Virus record (IMG/VR): IMGVR_UViG_2639762982_000012
DNA: 10,956 nt
Source: a virus
Lineage: Duplodnaviria > Heunggongvirae > Uroviricota > Caudoviricetes
Direction: 5' to 3' (one strand)
Numbering within the stretch: the first letter of the stretch is position 1; every line of letters starts with the position of its first letter. Shown in pieces: positions 253-10,956 of this stretch. The position numbers and the translations under genes are program-made. Below the pieces are notes generated by a model, which was given only the letters and a program-made list of their open reading frames with translations, made no database searches and was not told where the DNA came from.

Positions 253-282
253 TCCAAATAAAAAAGCTCCCGAAGGAGCTTT
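253..282 (-). terminator. Rho-independent terminator closing the structural-gene operon
   Basis: Minus-strand stem AGCTCC / GGAGCT (265-270 with 275-280) and 4-nt loop, followed on the minus strand by TTTTTTATTTGG. It lies about 20 nt after the stop of the 302..811 CDS. Confidence 0.7.
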
Positions 283-301: not shown

Positions 302-811
302 TTAATCCCAATCAATCCAGTTGTAGACGATACGAAGTGACGGGCGCACAGCAGCAGTCACATCTTCGGTACTAAAGTCGATTGCATCACTGTAGATTTT
401 GCAGTCCAACATTTCAATTGTTGTAGCAGCTTTTGTCACAGCGTTAACCCCGGAAGATTTGGATTCAGGGGTAGCAGCCATCGTGATATCAACATAGTCC
501 TTCGCCGCAATGCGATCTTTAATGAACTGAAGAATATCGCCTTCGATAGTCTCCACGCACTGGACCTGGATTTCCCCGGAGTTACGGATTGGACCGTGCT
601 GGTTGAACTTCACACCATTCGGACCATAGTCCTCCACATCCTCGCGGGTCATTTCAGGAATTTGCGACGTGCGAACCAGTACGCTGATATCTTCATGGCC
701 TGCAAAAGTGAGCTGGAATTCAGAAGATACCAGTCGTTCGCCTTTGGCCGCGTTGGCAGTATAGCGGCCCTTAATAAATTTACGGTTTCCCTTAGTGTTA
801 TTGTGCCCCAT
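302..811 (-). CDS. Phage structural protein, 169 aa; tail-tube-like (tentative)
   Basis: ATG at 809-811 with AAGGA about 8 nt upstream. Tightly packed (11-nt gap) after the upstream gene in the sheath operon. Size and sequence flavour resemble T4 gp19 / P2 FII-type tube proteins, but this is impressionistic. Last gene before the terminator. Confidence 0.4.
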   Translation of the reverse strand: MGHNNTKGNRKFIKGRYTANAAKGERLVSSEFQLTFAGHEDISVLVRTSQIPEMTREDVEDYGPNGVKFNQHGPIRNSGEIQVQCVETIEGDILQFIKDRIAAKDYVDITMAATPESKSSGVNAVTKAATTIEMLDCKIYSDAIDFSTEDVTAAVRPSLRIVYNWIDWD

Positions 812-822
812 ATAAAATCCTT

Positions 823-1404
823 TTACTGGAACGCCCGAACAATATCGGAGCTATTATATATCGAAGAACCGGTCAACTGGAGGTTGACGGTGTTTTTCAG
901 GAAATGCCCATTGCTGTCCCTGGGCGCATCGAGATCGAAACTTATGTCCTGGATAGCGACATCAATGATGTTGATCCGGCGACCAATGTTTAGCGTCACA
1001 CGCTCCGGGATTCGACCACCAATGCTGGCATCTTTAAGTTCCGGGCTAATCATCGCTGACAATGCGGCGATAGCTCCTGAAACCTCCGTGAATGGGTCAA
1101 ACAAAGCGATGAAAGTTACTGGCAGCGTGAAAGTCGGCGGTGTTCCCCCCTCCCAAACCATTAAGCTGTTCCAACGGGCCACCGACGTTGTTTCAGTACC
1201 AACCTGCGCAAAACCACTGAAAGCACCAGCAACAGACCCCATGGACATACCGGTAAACGGCGCTTCCCAATTCTGGGCCATGTTCATTGCTGCCCCCTGG
1301 CTGATATATCCGGTAACCTGGTACTGAGAGTTCGTTAAAGTAACTTTCAGAAATGGCGATACACCGTCAGCCTGGCTGTAAACCCCATAAGGTATAGGTG
1401 CCAT
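823..1404 (-). CDS. Phage morphogenesis protein, 193 aa, function unknown
   Basis: ATG at 1402-1404; same-strand operon position between the acidic 271-aa gene and the tube-like gene. No recognisable motif. The SD lies 5' of a hairpin (see 1415-1439 feature). Confidence 0.5.
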   Translation of the reverse strand: MAPIPYGVYSQADGVSPFLKVTLTNSQYQVTGYISQGAAMNMAQNWEAPFTGMSMGSVAGAFSGFAQVGTETTSVARWNSLMVWEGGTPPTFTLPVTFIALFDPFTEVSGAIAALSAMISPELKDASIGGRIPERVTLNIGRRINIIDVAIQDISFDLDAPRDSNGHFLKNTVNLQLTGSSIYNSSDIVRAFQ

Positions 1405-1414
1405 TCAAGTTAAA

Positions 1415-1439
1415 GGCCGGAGTTCTCCGGCCTCCTCCT
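1415..1439 (-). promoter_or_regulatory. Intercistronic RNA hairpin placed between the Shine-Dalgarno and the start codon of the 193-aa gene
   Basis: Minus-strand mRNA reads TAA-AGGAGGAGG-CCGGAGAACTCCGGCC-TTTAACTTGA-ATG. GGCCGGA / TCCGGCC forms a 7-bp GC-rich stem with a 4-nt loop. AGGAGG sits immediately 5' of the stem and the ATG 10 nt 3' of it, so linear spacing is ~29 nt but folded spacing is about 10 nt. Confidence 0.45.
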
Positions 1440-2255
1440 TTAGCCAAGGCGCTTACGGCGCAGTTTCATTGACTTTTTGCGGGCAAGTTTTGCCGCGCCG
1501 GTCTGGGCTTTTCGACGCGCTTTTTTCAGCGCCGATTTTTGAGCCGCAGTCAGACGTTTTTTACGCAGGCGTTTACGGATGAGTTTGATCTCACCGTTAC
1601 GAACAACCTTCTTAAATGCTTCAGTCAGCATTTCATCAGAAGTGCCAGCAACAACAAACGCCGCTTCCAGTTCGTCGCGGTCGTCGCTATCTAAACCAGC
1701 GATAGAGGCACCAACATCAGCAGCAGCGTCGTCGTCTTCATCGTCAGCCAGTGCTTCGATCAGGTCATCATCTACACCGCATGCTGCGAGGAAGTCAGCA
1801 ACATTTGCCCATGCTTCGTTATAGGCATCGTCCTGTTCTTCTGTAACTTCGGAGTCGTCGTCATCAGAGATACCAGCGATAGCCTGAACGAAACCATCAA
1901 GGGAGTCGAAAGTCAGATCACCGCTATCAGCCCAGGAGAAAACGGCGTCGGCCGCATCACTCAACGCATTCTGCATAGCACTTCGATTTGCAGCTTCCAG
2001 AATCATCTGGTGCGCCTGTTCGACGGTCCATTCTTTACCATCTTTCCCTTCCAGGATTTGCTCAGGAGCCGGATCAGATGGAACATTATCGTTAGTCTGT
2101 GCCGCCGGTTCCGGATTATTATTAATAACCGGATCTGTTGGCGGTTCGGCGCTTGCTCGGGCAGACTCCATCAGCTGCACAGGATCAGAGTTCAAAGCGA
2201 AACGGGACAGTCCATTCCCCAAAAATGCCCCGGATTGAAAAAAGTTTTTGCTCAT
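1440..2255 (-). CDS. Acidic phage protein with a poly-basic C-terminal tail, 271 aa; morphogenetic or internal protein (function unknown)
   Basis: ATG at 2253-2255, 9 nt after the sheath stop. The central region is extremely D/E-rich (DDDDSEVTEEQDD, ALADDEDDDAAAD, LDSDDRDELE). The last ~50 residues are K/R-rich (KLIRKRLRKKRL...KKARRK...KLRRKRLG). Confidence 0.55.
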   Translation of the reverse strand: MSKNFFQSGAFLGNGLSRFALNSDPVQLMESARASAEPPTDPVINNNPEPAAQTNDNVPSDPAPEQILEGKDGKEWTVEQAHQMILEAANRSAMQNALSDAADAVFSWADSGDLTFDSLDGFVQAIAGISDDDDSEVTEEQDDAYNEAWANVADFLAACGVDDDLIEALADDEDDDAAADVGASIAGLDSDDRDELEAAFVVAGTSDEMLTEAFKKVVRNGEIKLIRKRLRKKRLTAAQKSALKKARRKAQTGAAKLARKKSMKLRRKRLG

Positions 2256-2264
2256 TGTATTCCC

Positions 2265-3854
2265 TTACTTAATAAGCAGCGGTACGCCCTGGATACGACG
2301 GGCTACGCCAGTCGGGCAGCAGGCCCAGACTACTTCCCATTTATCGAATTCCGCCTGCGTAACTTTCAGCACATACGGTTCTGTACCGTCAGCATCGGGA
2401 TCACGAGGAGCCACCAGAGCGCCGGAGGCGACAAAGCGATCTAAAAGTTTGGTCATCCCTTTAGTCAGGCCAGCCGCAGTAATACCGTCCGGGCTATGCT
2501 TCATCTGTCGGGCTAACTGGACAAAGAAACGGCTGATTGCATTCATCAGGGATGGGACGTGCTGGAAGTGCAGATAGTTATCCTGCGTGCAGCAAGTTAA
2601 AGCATCGTCGATGATCATCTGGCCAGAGGTGCCAACAGATACTTTATTGAGACGGCCCTTGACCATTGCTTCTTCGTCCGGGGTATCTTCCGGATACAGC
2701 GGTTGAATTGACGCACGAGCAATGACGGCACGTTCTTCACCAGCCGGTGAGTAATGCCAACCGCCGACATCAGAGTTTTTCTTGACGCCATGAGCTTTCG
2801 CCGCATACGCCACGCCAGACAGACCAAAGACCACACGGGATTGGGTCCATTTGTCTTTGCAGGAGAACGGGTAGTGATAGACAGAACAGCTTACATAATC
2901 GGTACCAAGTAAACCGGTACCCTCAACAGCTGTTAGTGCTTCTGCGTACCTTAATGTCGGTTTGACATCAAAGAAGCCATCAATCAGGCGATCTGCACAG
3001 ATTTTACCTAATGCGGTGATAGCCGCATTGTCATAGCAGCCCAGGCCAAGAACAGCGGTGTACATGTACGGCGCATTGTTCAGCACTTTCACCGCACGCA
3101 GGTACGCAGCGGTTGAGATTTTCGACTGATCACCGTTGGTACCACCAGTGAACGCCAACGATTTTTTGTTTGTTACTTTCGCTGTAGAAATCAGATCTTC
3201 ATTAACAACCGCGCGCAGATATTTAGAACGAGCTTCCAGAGCCGTAGGCAGATAACACAAGCGGCCCATGTCATCTTTCGCTTCTTCCGCCAAAGACACA
3301 GTGTGTGTCTCCAGGGTCGTTACCACACCAAGCGAAGTCGTCTGGGTCAGTTTTAAGATGAAGCGTTCATTACTCGCGCTGTCCGCTGTTGCCGTTTCGA
3401 TGGTTAACTCACGGGTAGGTGAAATACACGGATCACCATCATCAACGTAGATAGCAAAGGCTTCGCCGCTATCAAGTTCAATTTCAGAACCGTATGGCAA
3501 CGCACTGTAAGCCGGTTCGCCTGATTCATCGAACATAATAATCGGGAACTTCGCATCATCCGGAACAGCACGGACAACATAACCAGACGTTTGCTGAATA
3601 GCTTCGTATACATGGCGAATTGGTTCGAACTGTGGGCCGGAAGACGGCTTCAGCGGTTCGCCGAGAACATCTTCGTAATTGGACTCAGTAACCGCAAGAA
3701 CAGTAAACGGCTTGCCACGCGCAAATACGCCAATACCAGCCCACAAGCTGCTATTTAATGCAACACCGGTAGATAACGTCGCATCGGCATTGATCGGGCT
3801 AACCGCGACGCCGGATGCATTACCTAATGACTGTTGAATTGAATATTGAGACAT
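2265..3854 (-). CDS. Contractile tail sheath protein, 529 aa
   Basis: The N-terminal region (ATLSTGVALNSSLWAGIGVFARGKPF...TSGYVVRAV) parallels the T4 gp18-type sheath N-terminus (…TGTAALAGKFQWGPAF…RVVRAV, recalled). Size fits myovirus sheaths. Probably the equivalent of P1 gene 22, if my recollection of the P1 order 21-22-23-parB-parA-repA is right. Confidence 0.8.
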   Translation of the reverse strand: MSQYSIQQSLGNASGVAVSPINADATLSTGVALNSSLWAGIGVFARGKPFTVLAVTESNYEDVLGEPLKPSSGPQFEPIRHVYEAIQQTSGYVVRAVPDDAKFPIIMFDESGEPAYSALPYGSEIELDSGEAFAIYVDDGDPCISPTRELTIETATADSASNERFILKLTQTTSLGVVTTLETHTVSLAEEAKDDMGRLCYLPTALEARSKYLRAVVNEDLISTAKVTNKKSLAFTGGTNGDQSKISTAAYLRAVKVLNNAPYMYTAVLGLGCYDNAAITALGKICADRLIDGFFDVKPTLRYAEALTAVEGTGLLGTDYVSCSVYHYPFSCKDKWTQSRVVFGLSGVAYAAKAHGVKKNSDVGGWHYSPAGEERAVIARASIQPLYPEDTPDEEAMVKGRLNKVSVGTSGQMIIDDALTCCTQDNYLHFQHVPSLMNAISRFFVQLARQMKHSPDGITAAGLTKGMTKLLDRFVASGALVAPRDPDADGTEPYVLKVTQAEFDKWEVVWACCPTGVARRIQGVPLLIK

Positions 3855-3869
3855 AACTTTCCCTGTTAT

Positions 3870-3888
3870 GCGCCCCGCACGGGGGCGC
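3870..3888 (-). other. GC-rich stem-loop in the capsid-sheath intercistronic region (no U-tract)
   Basis: GCGCCCC / GGGGCGC 7-bp stem with a 5-nt loop, between the capsid stop (3915-3917) and the sheath SD/ATG. It is followed by ATAACAGGGAAAGTT-ATG rather than a T-run, so it is not a canonical terminator. Confidence 0.5.
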
Positions 3889-3914: not shown

Positions 3915-5621
3915 TTACTCAGAGTCACCGGCATCAATCGTGTCGCCGCTAATGAAGTTAAGCCCGCCTTTTTTGGCCATTGTCAGCGTTACACGAGTGA
4001 AGTAATCAGCGCCGTTGCGTGGGTGCATATCGTTGATAGCCGAACCCCACAGCGTGGTACGGTTGACCAGCGCCGGAGTGGTCGGATGCTGGAACGGGAT
4101 GGCCGGGACAGCATCACCAGTCACGAAGCCTGCTTTACCCGGATTTTCATCACGGACGTAGCACAGCACATCCATCGAGCTGAACTGAATGTTCTCTGTC
4201 GTTAAGTTCTTACAAATACCAGCAGGTACTTCGTACACTTTCACGTTACCGAACAGGGTACCGATGTAGTGAACATACGGAGTCTGGATATAGTCTTCGG
4301 CTGGCTGGAAGAAATCCTTCGGCAACTGTTTGAAGAAAGATGCTGCATCAGCACCAGCAAACATCCCCATCGCACCAGAAGATTTAACGCGCTCAATAAT
4401 GTCGCGATATACAGTCTGGAATTTGCCACGAATGATGGTTGCCCATACATCAAAGGACTGGTTAACCGGCAGAGCGATGTCAAAGGTGTCGGTCGCAAGA
4501 GTACGCCAGATCATGATGCGAAGACGCAGCATATCCTGTTCATGAGACAGGTATTCCTTCAGGGTGCGGAACTGTAGGGAACCCAGGTCCAGACCAAATT
4601 CACGCTGTGCTTCATACGCCGCCTGTACCGTGTGCTCAGCCGCGATAACGAACTGGCTTGGGAACAGGGTGTATTTCTTCATTTCGTGGTTGATCAGCGG
4701 GATCAGCTCAGGAGCGGCTTCAATATTGATTTCCGTCTCAATTGCGATCTCAGTGCCTTTATCCGGCGCTTTGGAGAACGACAGGGCAATCTGACCAATG
4801 TTGTAGTTCAGAGAGCAGGTAACAGTGATTTGCTCACCAGCAGCATTAGTAAACGAGTGAAGTAGGCTGCCGGAACCGTTATCAACAACAGACTTAATAC
4901 GGTTAACGTAGATGTTAGTACGACCTTTTCGGATTGGTACATTCTGGCCTTCGAAGTCTTCCATCTTGAAGGTTGCGGTTTTGCTGGTGCCATCGGAGCT
5001 TGCCACCAGCACATAGCGGCGACGTAACTGGCTGTACACACCGACGGATTGCATGTCCAGAACATCACCAGCAGCATAAGAACCAAAAGAGGAACCTGCC
5101 ACGTTAAAGACTTCATAGATGTCGGACTGGTCACGCGTAACCGGAATGAAGGTACACGCATCAGCGGTAGCTGCCCCCAACTGAACAGGCAGGATCATCG
5201 CGAGGAATAAAGGCAGACGCATAACACCGTCAGAAACGCTCATCATCTCTGCTGCGACGGATTCCAGCATCGCTTTATTAGTGGCATCCATGCTATTGCG
5301 GGTGGACTCAATCAGGCAGTTTTCCAGCGTCTGGTGGCAGGAGGCCAGAATTTCCGGACGCGGCATAGATTTATGTGCTGCGGCGTAGTCAGCCAGTGCA
5401 CTTGCCCACGCTGTAGCGATTTGAGCGGTGGCATTATCAGAGATACCCGCAAAAACCGGGTCTTTACGTGCAGCTTCAAGGATAGATGCGGCACGCGCGG
5501 CATCATCTTTAATGAATTGGTTATCAGTACCGAACTGCGCAGTGCTTGCCCAGCCAAGCACAGCTTTAGAGCGTTTTGCGATATCTGCAATACGATTCTG
5601 GTATTCGCGTAAGTTACTCAA
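3915..5621 (-). CDS. Major capsid (head) protein precursor, ~568 aa, with an Ala-rich helical N-terminal domain; TTG start
   Basis: The frame is open from 5642, but the only good RBS is AAGGAAG 6 nt before the TTG at 5619-5621; the next in-frame ATG is about 85 codons further in. The first ~110 residues are Ala-rich and helical, like a scaffold/delta domain that is cleaved off. Sits upstream of the sheath gene and next to parS. Size matches my recollection of the ~62 kDa P1 gp23 precursor. Confidence 0.65.
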   Translation of the reverse strand: MSNLREYQNRIADIAKRSKAVLGWASTAQFGTDNQFIKDDAARAASILEAARKDPVFAGISDNATAQIATAWASALADYAAAHKSMPRPEILASCHQTLENCLIESTRNSMDATNKAMLESVAAEMMSVSDGVMRLPLFLAMILPVQLGAATADACTFIPVTRDQSDIYEVFNVAGSSFGSYAAGDVLDMQSVGVYSQLRRRYVLVASSDGTSKTATFKMEDFEGQNVPIRKGRTNIYVNRIKSVVDNGSGSLLHSFTNAAGEQITVTCSLNYNIGQIALSFSKAPDKGTEIAIETEINIEAAPELIPLINHEMKKYTLFPSQFVIAAEHTVQAAYEAQREFGLDLGSLQFRTLKEYLSHEQDMLRLRIMIWRTLATDTFDIALPVNQSFDVWATIIRGKFQTVYRDIIERVKSSGAMGMFAGADAASFFKQLPKDFFQPAEDYIQTPYVHYIGTLFGNVKVYEVPAGICKNLTTENIQFSSMDVLCYVRDENPGKAGFVTGDAVPAIPFQHPTTPALVNRTTLWGSAINDMHPRNGADYFTRVTLTMAKKGGLNFISGDTIDAGDSE

Positions 5622-5669
5622 TTTACTCTTCCTTAAACACAAGGCACTTGTGTGAATCCCTTTTCGGAA

Positions 5670-8511: not shown

Positions 8512-9039
8512 TTAAGTCCGAAGCATAAACATTGCTTTCAGCAATTCACACTGAGCGCGGATCGCGTCCGGTTCATAGCCAGATATGGAGACATAAGCCA
8601 CGTCCCTCATTCCTGCGTCATCTTTGAAAGTCACGATAGAAGTAACATCCAGCTCTTTTTCGAAAGAGCAAGCAGCATCTACTGGACGCTGAAGTAAATC
8701 ATTCGACTTAATGCGCTCGAGAATCCCTCCCCACATATCATTTAGATATTCGATATGAGCCAAAACCTTATCAAGACACTCTCGTGTAAACCATTCAGTA
8801 TGCCCGCCACCTGCGCTTTTCTCCCACGGCGCATTCCAGGGGAAAAAGGTTGCGTGTAAAGCCCGCTCAAGATTAACCATTGCCAAACGCGTACCACGAT
8901 AGACCCGTGAAAGCGCAAAATCGGGACTCACTTGTAGCCCTTTAAACCGTGCCAATGGACCACATGAAATGCCGATTTTAAAAGTATCTCCGTTCTCCGG
9001 CACCAGAACGTAGAGGTAGTGTTGTTTCTCTTCTTGCAT
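8512..9039 (-). CDS. GIY-YIG superfamily (T5orf172-like) domain protein, 175 aa as written; possibly truncated by a nonsense codon
   Basis: N-terminal YLYVL-(10 aa)-FKIGIS-(6 aa)-R ... ALHATFF ... GGGHTEWF reproduces the GIY / YIG / Arg / Glu spacing of GIY-YIG-type domains in the T5orf172 / MUG113 style. ATG at 9037-9039 directly abuts the incA-like iterons. Weak SD. Confidence 0.6.
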   Translation of the reverse strand: MQEEKQHYLYVLVPENGDTFKIGISCGPLARFKGLQVSPDFALSRVYRGTRLAMVNLERALHATFFPWNAPWEKSAGGGHTEWFTRECLDKVLAHIEYLNDMWGGILERIKSNDLLQRPVDAACSFEKELDVTSIVTFKDDAGMRDVAYVSISGYEPDAIRAQCELLKAMFMLRT

Positions 9040-9073: not shown

Positions 9074-9330
9074 GTTGACTATGCGCGAAAGTTAATGTGA
9101 ATAGTTGACTATGCGCGATGTGACTACAGTCAAAAGTTGACTGTAGTCGATTTAACTCCACCAAAAATCGACTATGTAAGATATTGTCGGGAGAAACGTT
9201 GACTATACGCGATGAAATGACCCTAAAAGCCATCTCAATAGCGACTTGCAGAATATTGACGCCAGCAAAAATCCACCAGCGTCAACGAATGTCGCCTATA
9301 GTCAACTTCTCGCTATCGCATATAGTCAAT
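9074..9330. repeat. incA-like iteron array (RepA binding sites, both orientations) downstream of repA
   Basis: At least seven copies of a ~15-bp motif, GTTGACTATRCGCGA. Forward copies at 9074-9088, 9104-9118 and 9198-9212. Inverted copies at 9291-9306 and 9316-9330. Degenerate copies near 9168-9180 and 9255-9289. A perfect 13-3-13 palindrome, TGACTACAGTCAA-AAG-TTGACTGTAGTCA, spans 9121-9149. Confidence 0.8.
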
Positions 9331-9331
9331 A

Positions 9332-10216
9332 TTATGGATTGCGCTTATGGATCTGGAAGCCGATTTTCCTGCCGTTTTTTATCTCTGAAAATTTAAGATA
9401 TTCAATAGCTTCCAAATCTTTCATAGCTTTTCTGATAACGCTATTTTGCACGCTAACGGATGATTTGAGATTAAGCCTTGCTCTAAGGCGCTCAATGCTG
9501 ACAGGTGCCGGGTTGGCGGGTAGAGCCTCAAAGAATGTATACAGCACCTTGGCCGTCTCTTTGCGCCCGAGCTTATCCAGCATCTTCAGCTTCAGGATTC
9601 GCTTATAGTCAACATAGTAAAGTTCAGATAGCTGTTTCTGCGGCTGGATCTCGATAACATCAAGCTCGGTATTCAGGCTGCTATATGCCAACAAGTTGAC
9701 GTTAATGTTATTGAGATGACCTTTTGCCGCCGGGAAGCGGAATTTGACAACTGTCTGCTGAATGCGTGTCAGAGAGTCATCAATACTTTTACGGAACGCC
9801 TTTGAAAGGCGCTTACGTGGATAGCCGCATCGATCGGCAAACTCGGAGAATGGCAGGGTGATTATGCCGTCATCATCAGGTGCGTAGTCAAACAACGCGG
9901 AGGTTATGCCCACCCACACCTTAAAATCAGTATCCATATCCAGGCGTGGACCATGTATTTCAATTCCCTCATAGCCTTCCTGCTCAACAATTTTGAGGCT
10001 TGATAGTTCTTCGGTTGCGTTCGTTGTGTTTGTAGTAACTGACGATCCGCGACGTAGTGCCACATTGGTAGATTTTAAGGTTGGCACAAACACACCTAAG
10101 CGCAACAAAGCGATGGGTTGTATAGTGCTATTGTTATTGGGTTTCAGGCTGTGGATTTCTCCTGTATTTCCTGCAACTTCTTCAACGCTAAGGAAGCCTT
10201 TATTTTCTTCCGGCAT
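9332..10216 (-). CDS. repA: RepA replication initiator (iteron-binding), ~294 aa
   Basis: Flanked on both sides by iterons. Start chosen at the ATG at 10214-10216, which has GGAG 8 nt upstream; the longer frame from the TTG at 10273 lacks an RBS. Internal motifs (QPIALLRLGVFVP, GPRLDMDTDFK) resemble what I recall of the P1 RepA family. P1 RepA is 286 aa. Confidence 0.85.
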   Translation of the reverse strand: MPEENKGFLSVEEVAGNTGEIHSLKPNNNSTIQPIALLRLGVFVPTLKSTNVALRRGSSVTTNTTNATEELSSLKIVEQEGYEGIEIHGPRLDMDTDFKVWVGITSALFDYAPDDDGIITLPFSEFADRCGYPRKRLSKAFRKSIDDSLTRIQQTVVKFRFPAAKGHLNNINVNLLAYSSLNTELDVIEIQPQKQLSELYYVDYKRILKLKMLDKLGRKETAKVLYTFFEALPANPAPVSIERLRARLNLKSSVSVQNSVIRKAMKDLEAIEYLKFSEIKNGRKIGFQIHKRNP

Positions 10217-10295
10217 CGTGGTTTCTCCATATGTGGCGCGGCCTGGCGTCATCTGGATTGCAGTTATCAACAACTGTGAATAGTCAGGCTCTAAA

Positions 10296-10510: not shown

Positions 10511-10771
10511 GAATAAACCGGCCAATAAAGCCGGTTGGAAGGAAGCCGTATTATTCTACGCTCTCGATAAGAAGACCATGTTCATCGATAGGAATTTAAA
10601 TCCCAAAAAGATTAAAAAAACACCCAAAAACGGATGTTTATTCAACACTGCCTGCGTGCCATGAGTGCACCGCCATCAATTAAATGGATCTTATCGAGTG
10701 ATACTGTATATCACTGATGGTTTTTTTACTCCATTCCCCTGAAAATGGACGCAACTTCCCCGATGCGGCTC

Positions 10772-10956
10772 TCAGCCGCACACCCGCTGTTGCGCCAGTG
10801 GCTCATGCATCAGGACCAGCTCTGTCAGACGGTAGCCCCGCTTCAGCCCCGTAAAACGCATCTGACATCCGCACAGGATGCACTTTAGCGGGTCAACCTT
10901 CAGTAACCGCTGATACATCCCTCTCCACCTGATTTGCATCGCCGTCTTTCTCACCG
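10772..10956 (-). CDS. C-terminal 60 codons of an ORF running in from the right edge; CxxC-containing, function unknown
   Basis: The frame is open to the last base of the window and stops at 10772-10774. Contains ...DPLKCILCGCQMRF..., vaguely like Zn-ribbon C-termini of some transposases, but I cannot place it. Confidence 0.3.
   Translation of the reverse strand, partial: VRKTAMQIRWRGMYQRLLKVDPLKCILCGCQMRFTGLKRGYRLTELVLMHEPLAQQRVCG

Follow-up and report, generated by a model that had tools for sequence, protein, structure and literature searches.

A candidate split ribosome-binding site between gene 21 and pmgG of P1-like phage-plasmids

How do ribosomes initiate on pmgG, a gene whose Shine-Dalgarno sequence (SD) lies 29 nt from its start codon, on the far side of a GC-rich hairpin? 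We addressed this question in a stretch of 10,956 nt (IMG/VR record IMGVR_UViG_2639762982_000012), here called the window, which represents a P1-like phage-plasmid and has every long open reading frame (ORF) of its ORF list on the minus strand. The 1.7 kb spanning the junction match 714 plasmid records, mostly E. coli plasmids of 90-100 kb, with an identity of 95.8-98.9% against phage P1 records and of 96.8% against P7. The matching P1 region (95.8% DNA identity) carries the annotations 21, pmgG, 22 and bplB. Gene names were assigned from PHROGs and the P1 GenBank feature table; Pfam returned no match for any of the five late proteins. The late genes and the end of their transcription unit are:

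3915-5642, minus strand: gene 23, major capsid (P1 record and PHROGs)
2265-3854, minus strand: gene 22, sheath (P1 record and PHROGs)
1440-2255, minus strand: homologue of P1 gene 21, 271 aa (ORF list, P1 identity, match to PHROG 1053)
823-1404, minus strand: pmgG, 193 aa, baseplate-tail tube junction protein (PHROG 1114, E = 1.5e-80; P1 annotation; N-terminus conserved in the alignment)
302-811, minus strand: bplB, tail tube protein (ORF list and PHROGs; tube role assigned in a cryo-EM preprint)
263-282, minus strand: intrinsic terminator after bplB, AAAGCTCC-TTCG-GGAGCTTT followed by TTTATTT (terminator scan and direct read)

The genes parB and parA lie upstream of this late block. In the P1 record, LP23 and two predicted sigma-70 promoters (P1 23 and P2 23) are all placed upstream of gene 23, and the P1 GenBank feature table annotates no promoter between gene 23 and bplB; bplB belongs to the same LP23 transcription unit as pmgG and lies downstream of it. 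The product of gene 21 has an acidic middle and a very basic C-terminus, and the gene ends with a TAA stop at 1442-1440. The neighboring 22/21 junction is ordinary (TAAGGGAATACAATG), as is the pmgG/bplB junction, where bplB begins 11 nt 3' of pmgG behind a conventional SD (TAAAAGGATTTTATATG). PmgG is a T4 gp48-like protein that is essential and is found in the virion (PMC9024508), so pmgG must be translated. According to the cryo-EM preprint, PmgG forms one hexamer per baseplate (6 copies), the sheath protein gp22 is present in 322 copies and BplB makes the tail tube. pmgG is a low-copy gene, with the sheath gene 22 and gene 21 upstream of it and the tube gene bplB downstream.

Anatomy and predicted folding of the junction

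Read directly on the minus strand, the junction runs TAA, AGGAGGA, GGCCGGA, GAAC, TCCGGCC, TTTAACTTGA, ATG. Its elements are:

1434-1440, minus strand: SD AAGGAGG (direct read; best anti-SD duplex in the junction)
1415-1432, minus strand: RNA hairpin GGCCGGA-GAAC-TCCGGCC, 7 bp with a 4-nt loop (folding; conserved in relatives)
1405-1414, minus strand: 10-nt AU-rich spacer TTTAACTTGA, lacking an SD (direct read)

The gene 21 stop codon ends in the A (1440) with which AAGGAGG begins, and a single A at 1433 separates the SD from the hairpin, whose 5' arm (1432-1426), GAAC loop (1425-1422) and 3' arm (1421-1415) fill most of the remaining interval. Adding A1433-U1414 gives a stem of 8 Watson-Crick pairs, and a stem of 10 pairs, two of them G.U (1412-1435), is also possible and takes in the 3' end of the SD. 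Counted from the last G of the SD to the A of the pmgG ATG, the distance is 29 nt on linear RNA and 11 nt once the 18-nt hairpin is subtracted. The linear value lies beyond the roughly 15 nt that we took as the lower bound for a split site. A sequence-only reading of this DNA had described AGGAGG immediately after the upstream stop, about 29 nt from the ATG, with a 7-bp GC-rich hairpin occupying the gap, and direct reading bears out each of these points; its folded spacing of about 10 nt was right about the large shortening and needs correcting to 11 nt.

The position of the start codon is well constrained. The pmgG ATG occupies 1404-1402 and is directly preceded, in frame, by TGA (1407-1405), which rules out a start further 5'; no other in-frame ATG follows until codon 40, which in the protein alignment falls within conserved sequence. 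In an anti-SD scan of the junction the best duplex (-12.1 kcal/mol) is formed by AAGGAGG upstream of the hairpin, and the 10-nt spacer contains no SD-like match. Together, the TGA, the SD-free spacer and the conserved N-terminus identify the ATG at 1404 as the start and AAGGAGG as its sole SD. The earlier claim that this is the only SD of the 193-aa gene is upheld, and the search for an alternative start with an SD of its own came up empty. A stable predicted hairpin sits wholly inside the spacer, the folded spacing falls in a functional range, and no competing SD or start is available. Two other uses of these elements were considered and rejected: a small ORF inside the hairpin served by the SD (no ATG, GTG or TTG occurs 5-13 nt after it) and hairpin-stimulated stop readthrough or frameshifting (in the window the frame stays open for 9 codons past the TAA, an extension that D6 does not conserve).

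RNA folding, which the sequence-only reading had proposed as a check, predicts a robust structure. The isolated hairpin has a predicted dG of -13.0 kcal/mol, and the weakest stem pair has a probability of 0.87, whether the context is 100 or 200 nt long. For the 47-nt junction the predicted energy is -23.8 kcal/mol (z = -4.63), which 0 of 200 shuffles equaled; for a 76-nt context, z = -3.29. Perfect GC-rich hairpins of at least 7 bp number 8 hits (5 distinct sites) in the window, compared with 0.7 +/- 0.9 in dinucleotide shuffles. These calculations suggest that the junction hairpin is real and unlikely to have arisen by chance. Rfam covariance models gave no match at 1400-1445, even at E <= 1.

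Additional pairing is predicted around the stem. In the predicted minimum-energy fold, base pairs join the GGA of the SD to UUU and the region of the stop codon to that of the AUG. In the window lineage, the 8 bases that precede the stem include 6 that are predicted to be paired, the AUG is partly paired, and across the predicted ensemble the SD bases are mostly paired. With much of the SD and part of the AUG predicted to be paired, the structure may hold initiation back as well as permit it. Among relatives the outer helices are not kept: the SD is mostly unpaired in JK004 and L143, and outer pairing is absent, or weaker and incomplete, in L144, L146 and L149.

The operon has one more conserved hairpin of this GC-rich kind, at the 23/22 junction, where it precedes the SD of gene 22 by 5 nt and has no U-tract.

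Conservation of the hairpin and its surroundings

In the first collection scans, 76 of 90 loci had a junction identical to that of the window, and the near variants keep the pairing: the topmost stem pair is G.U in P1, L071 contains a U.G pair, L072 lacks only the basal pair and L074 carries a loop-base change. To go beyond these near-identical junctions, we gathered distant lineages by re-querying with the D6, JK004 and L144 proteins, by protein search and by contig look-up. A scan of genome contigs yielded only 7 loci, of which the three distant ones (L008-L010) were left out as too weak; a Shigella dysenteriae plasmid (L151) was left out because its pmgG ORF is not intact. The resulting set contains ten junction types with the SD 5' of the hairpin, which we refer to as the split group: the window, P1, JK004, L143, L146, L149, L160, L161, L162 and L163. 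PmgG identity across these ten types is 72-100%. The distant members, which come from phage JK004, IMG/VR contigs, a Salmonella plasmid and assembled contigs, have 72-78% PmgG identity and about 71% DNA identity.

Within the split group the pairing is kept while much of the sequence around it changes. The core reads GGCCGG(A/G)...(U/C)CCGGCC, with a compensatory change from A-U to G-C in L160, L162 and L149; L163 has one additional basal G-C pair, which shifts its row by one base in the P1-side alignment (A4). The loops are 3-5 nt long and unrelated (GAAC, GCGA, GUGA, UUUC, AUCG, AUUG, UUCC, UUCCC and AUA), the distance from stop to SD varies from 0 to 4 nt, and only about half of the spacer bases are identical. 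Structure and geometry are thus retained through substitutions. GGAG occupies positions -6 to -3 from the core stem, 2 nt before it, in all ten types, and the ATG begins exactly 10 nt after the core stem in 10 of 10; these two geometry-defining spacers stay constant while the loop, stop-to-SD distance and spacer sequence vary, with the reservation that the fixed 2-nt and 10-nt values rest on only a few indel opportunities. In the junctions examined, the split group has no SD other than the GGAG 5' of the stem.

The start codons themselves follow the same spacing. JK004 begins ATG-GAA-TTT-TAC at +10. In L160 and L161 a new ATG stands at +10, two codons earlier than the ancestral one, which is now ATT or GTA, and in L146, L162, L149 and L163 both ATGs are present. 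These comparisons indicate that the pmgG start codon tracks the hairpin and not the N-terminus of the protein.

Other relatives, which make up the bulk of the P1/D6 family, have the hairpin with the SD on its 3' side. D6 and about 30 distinct D6-side junctions (99% to 53% identity to D6 PmgG) share a layout in which a GC-rich hairpin lies 4-10 nt after the gene 21 stop and is followed 2-6 nt later by a conventional SD and then by ATG, GTG or TTG; L154, L165, L159 and L166 have this layout too. Closer to the split group, L164 (71% identity) and L156 (66%) have the same GGCCGGG..TCCGGCC core, extended at its base, and lack the upstream SD; instead, a G-rich SD (GGGGGAG or GGGGTGAG) immediately precedes the ATG, 3-4 nt beyond the hairpin. 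L157 and a Vibrio plasmid (35% identity) lack the hairpin and have junctions of 9-13 nt. Across the lineages examined, the SD lies 5' of the hairpin in some and 3' of it in others, never in both places, with one SD per lineage, and GGAG is missing from the 5' spacer in every lineage that carries a downstream SD.

We used an alignment of D6-side junctions anchored on the coding flanks (A3) to ask how the stem has changed. In A3, 98.3% of cells are paired and 4 of 7 pairs have changed on both sides; none of 500 shuffles reaches either the observed percentage paired or the observed covariation score. A single MAFFT alignment containing the hairpins of both clades (A2) placed the stems out of register and was excluded from counting. 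The wobble cells in A3 are GU (7) and UG (3), and G.U pairs also occur in P1, L071, D6 and L097. The tolerated mismatches are of the G.U type when read on the mRNA strand, a sign of structure in RNA and not of a palindrome in DNA, and we conclude from this covariation pattern that the stem appears to be selected as RNA on the mRNA strand.

A neighbor-joining tree of PmgG groups the split lineages in one clade, with L156 and L164 as its sister. Their monophyly indicates that the split layout is a single derived state that was then retained, and the ten junction types consequently document retention and not independent origins. Taken with the distribution of the hairpin, the tree indicates that the hairpin predates the split arrangement and that the SD moved to its 5' side in the crown group of P1. 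Since the hairpin is conserved where there is nothing to bridge, its conservation is no evidence for bridging.

Parallels in T4 and a model for initiation on pmgG

To our knowledge, split ribosome-binding sites are known essentially from two T4 genes and are treated as textbook curiosities. The split initiation region at the T4 26-25 junction was reportedly described by Nivinskas et al. (1999) and by Malys and Nivinskas (2009), and the ribosome-binding site of gene 38 is said to have been discussed by Gold (1988). In T4 genes 38 and 25, a structure between the SD and the AUG brings a 22-nt spacing down to 5 nt in the first gene and a 27-nt spacing down to 11 nt in the second; initiation falls when mutations destabilize the structure, the split site was verified with lacZ fusions and by DMS probing, and it is confined to close T-even phages (PMC3014915). 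Reading the T4 26-25 junction directly, we find GAGG-C-CUCAAAG-AGUU-CUUUGAG-UUACUAUA-AUG, that is, an SD, 1 nt, an 18-nt hairpin (7 bp with a 4-nt loop), 8 nt and the AUG, with a linear spacing of 27 nt; counted from the sequence, the folded spacing of gene 25 is 9 nt, compared with the 11 nt given in the review (PMC3014915).

The likeness to gene 25 is close. Both are intercistronic junctions in a myovirus baseplate operon, both have an SD 1 nt 5' of an 18-nt hairpin, and in both the arrangement is limited to a crown group of close relatives and missing in distant ones; the AUG follows the hairpin after 8 nt in T4 and 10 nt in the P1 type, and the linear spacings are 27 and 29 nt. There is no sequence or gene homology, gene 25 encoding the wedge protein gp25 and pmgG a gp48-like protein, so the near-equal dimensions represent convergence and not homology. 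The stems also differ in kind: that of gene 25 is AU-rich, lies within the coding end of gene 26 and is predicted at -7.4 kcal/mol, whereas the P1 stem is GC-rich, intergenic and predicted at -13 kcal/mol. Unlike the T4 gene 25 site, which has been tested experimentally, the P1 site is known from sequence, and its hairpin predates the split layout. The sequence-only reading had drawn the parallel with T4 gene 38. The principle is indeed the same, a hairpin between SD and AUG that shortens a non-functional linear spacing, but gene 38 goes from 22 nt to a near-optimal 5 nt, whereas the P1 type goes from 29 nt to a long 11 nt and so stands closer to gene 25 (27 to about 9-11 nt).

We favor a model in which the gene 21-pmgG junction is a split, non-contiguous ribosome-binding site of the T4 gene 25 type, and consider this reading probable on the comparative evidence. 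In this scenario, the 18-nt GC-rich hairpin would fold in the late LP23 mRNA and leave an effective 11 nt between AAGGAGG and the pmgG AUG, itself located 10 nt past the stem on the 3' side. The 30S subunit would then hold the SD and AUG together with the hairpin looped out, as in T4 genes 25 and 38, and the output would be a moderate, folding-dependent translation of pmgG, possibly acting jointly, in the P1 lineage, with coupling to termination on gene 21. Moderate output would fit PmgG, which is needed in 6 copies per virion and is encoded between genes of far larger demand. Regarded this way, the P1-type junction is a further example of a rare known trick and not a new mechanism.

Several features count against this model. 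An effective 11 nt plus the width of the helix base is at the long end of the range used by E. coli ribosomes. The predicted pairing of the sequence before the stem (6 of 8 bases) and of part of the AUG would hinder free 30S binding. The AU-rich spacer could, in addition, allow SD-independent initiation. The idea in the sequence-only reading of a hairpin that folds out to serve a distant SD therefore survives in part: the comparative data and the T4 gene 25 geometry speak for it, and the notion that bridging is the sole purpose of the hairpin does not stand. The hairpin probably has another selected role, for which insulation of the initiation region, uncoupling from upstream ribosomes and mRNA stabilization are candidates.

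Alternative roles of the hairpin and implications

The strongest competitor of the split-site model, in our judgment unlikely but deserving attention, is that the hairpin acts alone at the level of the mRNA, as an exonuclease barrier, in processing or stability, or as an insulator against long-range pairing of the initiation region, while the upstream GGAGG does little or nothing for pmgG, which would be translated by low-level initiation on its unstructured AU-rich leader or by reinitiation after gene 21. Intercistronic stem-loops that set segmental mRNA stability include the REP hairpins at malE-malF and the hairpins of the puf operon. Like them, the junction hairpin is GC-rich, lacks a U-tract, stands just past the upstream stop and is conserved in structure, and the operon has a second one at 23/22. 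Unlike REP-type stem-loops, it is present in a single copy in the window (a search for REP elements allowing up to 3 mismatches found one site only, and this identity was rejected), and the genes downstream include one for a high-copy structural protein. A role of its own would account for a hairpin that covaries and is conserved in lineages whose SD follows it and leaves it nothing to bridge, for the similar conserved hairpin just upstream of the gene 22 SD, for the AU-rich 10-nt spacer present in all lineages and for a demand of only 6 copies of PmgG per virion. It fits less well with the behavior of the SD: a useless SD should decay at 71% DNA identity, but the offset of GGAG from the stem does not change in any split-group lineage, and GGAG is missing from the same spacer wherever a downstream SD exists. 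Nor does it explain why the ATG is held at +10 from the stem despite changes in the N-terminus, and a decay barrier that lowered downstream mRNA would starve the tail-tube gene bplB.

A related and equally tentative suggestion is that the hairpin, more than a passive bridge, is an old cis-element selected in its own right and controlling PmgG dosage, either as an uncoupler or insulator or as the operator of an RNA-binding regulator, and that the SD has switched sides around it.

Translational coupling is less likely still. Here the extended three-tier structure would lock both SD and AUG until a ribosome terminating on gene 21 melted it, and such coupling may also join the split site. The predicted fold lends itself to this idea, as it pairs the stop region with the AUG region and the GGA of the SD with UUU at a calculated -23.8 kcal/mol (z = -4.63), with the SD mostly paired in the ensemble and beginning inside the stop codon. 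The outer helices on which the lock would depend are, however, not conserved in JK004, L143, L144, L146 and L149, and once the hairpin is melted the spacing is again a non-functional 29 nt, so that refolding of the stem would still be required.

The sequence-only reading had also proposed that the hairpin and the U-rich stretch after it form a partial Rho-independent terminator that reduces transcription into pmgG and thereby sets stoichiometry. There is a resemblance, in that a GC-rich 7-bp stem with a 4-nt loop is directly followed by U's, and in D6-side L122, L138 and L139 the hairpin is followed by T5-T6. The U's in the window are nonetheless limited to UUU followed by AACUU. Our scan, which demanded a GC-rich hairpin followed directly by at least 5 U in 8, called the strong terminator after bplB but not the junction hairpin. 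The tail is also not conserved (UUUAACUU in the window, UUGAAUUA in JK004 and UUAUUGAC in L160), D6, L116 and L140 have no U-tract at all, and attenuation at this point would starve bplB, a gene further along the LP23 unit, with no annotated promoter in between, whose product is required in hundreds of copies. We therefore set this proposal aside as very unlikely.

Finally, the perfect 8-bp inverted repeat could in DNA be the binding site of a dimeric protein, a reading with next to nothing in its favor given that pairing and not stem sequence is conserved across the family, that the wobbles are G.U on the mRNA strand and would be A.C on the other, and that loop sequence and length vary freely.

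In the literature on split SDs that we consulted, including papers citing Malys and Nivinskas, there is no mention of P1, and we found no paper describing the gene 21-pmgG junction; a P1vir transcriptome preprint and a CRISPRi essentiality study are silent on it. If the split-site model is right, a third case in an unrelated classic phage suggests that the arrangement recurs. Its scope would extend to P1 and to several hundred P1-like plasmids of Enterobacteriaceae, some of them reported to carry resistance genes. There is also a practical consequence for annotation: gene callers that demand an SD 5-10 nt upstream mis-score or misplace such starts, as seen for the PGAP start in a Salmonella plasmid (L149) and for the annotated D6 start.

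The sister lineages with their SD on opposite sides of the hairpin amount to ready-made constructs for measuring what a looped-out hairpin costs or gains. The junction is also relevant to the question of what sets the output of a baseplate protein needed in 6 copies when its operon also encodes proteins needed in hundreds. Should the dosage-control reading prove true, the family would be a natural experiment in which 'hairpin then SD' can be compared with 'SD, hairpin, AUG'.

Start codons of pmgG among relatives

The annotated start of pmgG, the gene for the baseplate-tube junction protein, appears open to revision in two relatives.

L003 (phage D6, MF356679), 3211-3245: pmgG start region, with the annotated ATG at 3243
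L149 (Salmonella plasmid NZ_CP146848), 1195-1203: pmgG start region, with two ATGs, at 1195 and 1201

In D6 the annotated start is probably six codons too short, judging from the sequence: a TTG at 3225 lies in frame with pmgG and has GGGAG 9 nt 5' of it, the product read from this codon (MICGAIMP...) lines up with the N-termini of relatives, and many of these relatives start with ATG or GTG where D6 has the TTG. In L149, PGAP places the start at the second ATG. The first ATG lies at +10 from the hairpin, a position common to all relatives in which the hairpin separates the Shine-Dalgarno sequence (SD) from the start codon, and some related lineages lack the second ATG and have the first alone.

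Hairpins at the 21/pmgG and 23/22 junctions

The 21/pmgG junction itself varies among relatives, and a second GC-rich hairpin lies between the major capsid gene (23) and the sheath gene (22) of the window.

L157 (JGI metagenome contig), 1185-1203: region of the 13-nt junction, TAGGTAGGGGCCGGGCATG
L122, L138, L139 and L142 (IMG/VR contigs on the D6 side), upstream of position 1501: junctions with a T-tract
Window 3870-3888, minus strand: hairpin GCGCCCC-CGUGC-GGGGCGC between genes 23 and 22

The L157 junction is without a hairpin, although it is nested among lineages that have one. Within it, GGGGCCGGG is identical to the 5' arm of the L160-type hairpin plus its flanking G's, and may be what remained when the loop and 3' arm were deleted. 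The four D6-side junctions carry a 10-12 bp hairpin followed by T4-T6 (for example GCTGGTGGCTTTTTTAGGGAG). Unlike the 21/pmgG hairpin of the other lineages, this one does resemble an intrinsic terminator, sited immediately 5' of the pmgG SD.

The 23/22 hairpin lacks a U-tract and stands 25 nt past the capsid gene stop; the gene 22 SD (AGGGAAAG) begins 5 nt past it. This order, hairpin and then SD, is the one that D6-type phages have at 21/pmgG. At the 23/22 junction of phage JK004 the stem is identical to the window's and the loop is UUCG.

Other hairpins and inverted repeats in the window

263-282, minus strand: strong intrinsic terminator 3' of the tail tube gene bplB, AAAGCTCC-TTCG-GGAGCTTT then TTTATTT
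9122-9148: perfect 12-bp inverted repeat, GACTACAGTCAA-AAG-TTGACTGTAGTC
10516-10536: perfect 7-bp GC-rich hairpin, AACCGGC...GCCGGTT, upstream of the repA-like gene
10764-10780: perfect 7-bp GC-rich hairpin, TGCGGCT-CTC-AGCCGCA, upstream of the repA-like gene

No terminator feature is listed in the P1 GenBank feature table for the stretch corresponding to 263-282. The 12-bp repeat, flanked by a 175-aa ORF (8512-9039) and the repA-like gene (9332-10273), could serve as an operator or form a structured element.

The product of gene 21

The gene 21 product, gp21 (1440-2255), combines a long and very acidic middle region with a C-terminal tail that is extremely basic (…KLIRKRLRKKRL…RKKSMKLRRKRLG). 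P1 gp21 was scored essential by CRISPRi, yet it is not mentioned in the 2022 virion proteome paper, as judged by a text search. The protein may act in assembly, as a chaperone or scaffold, and not be a "baseplate or tail tube" component.
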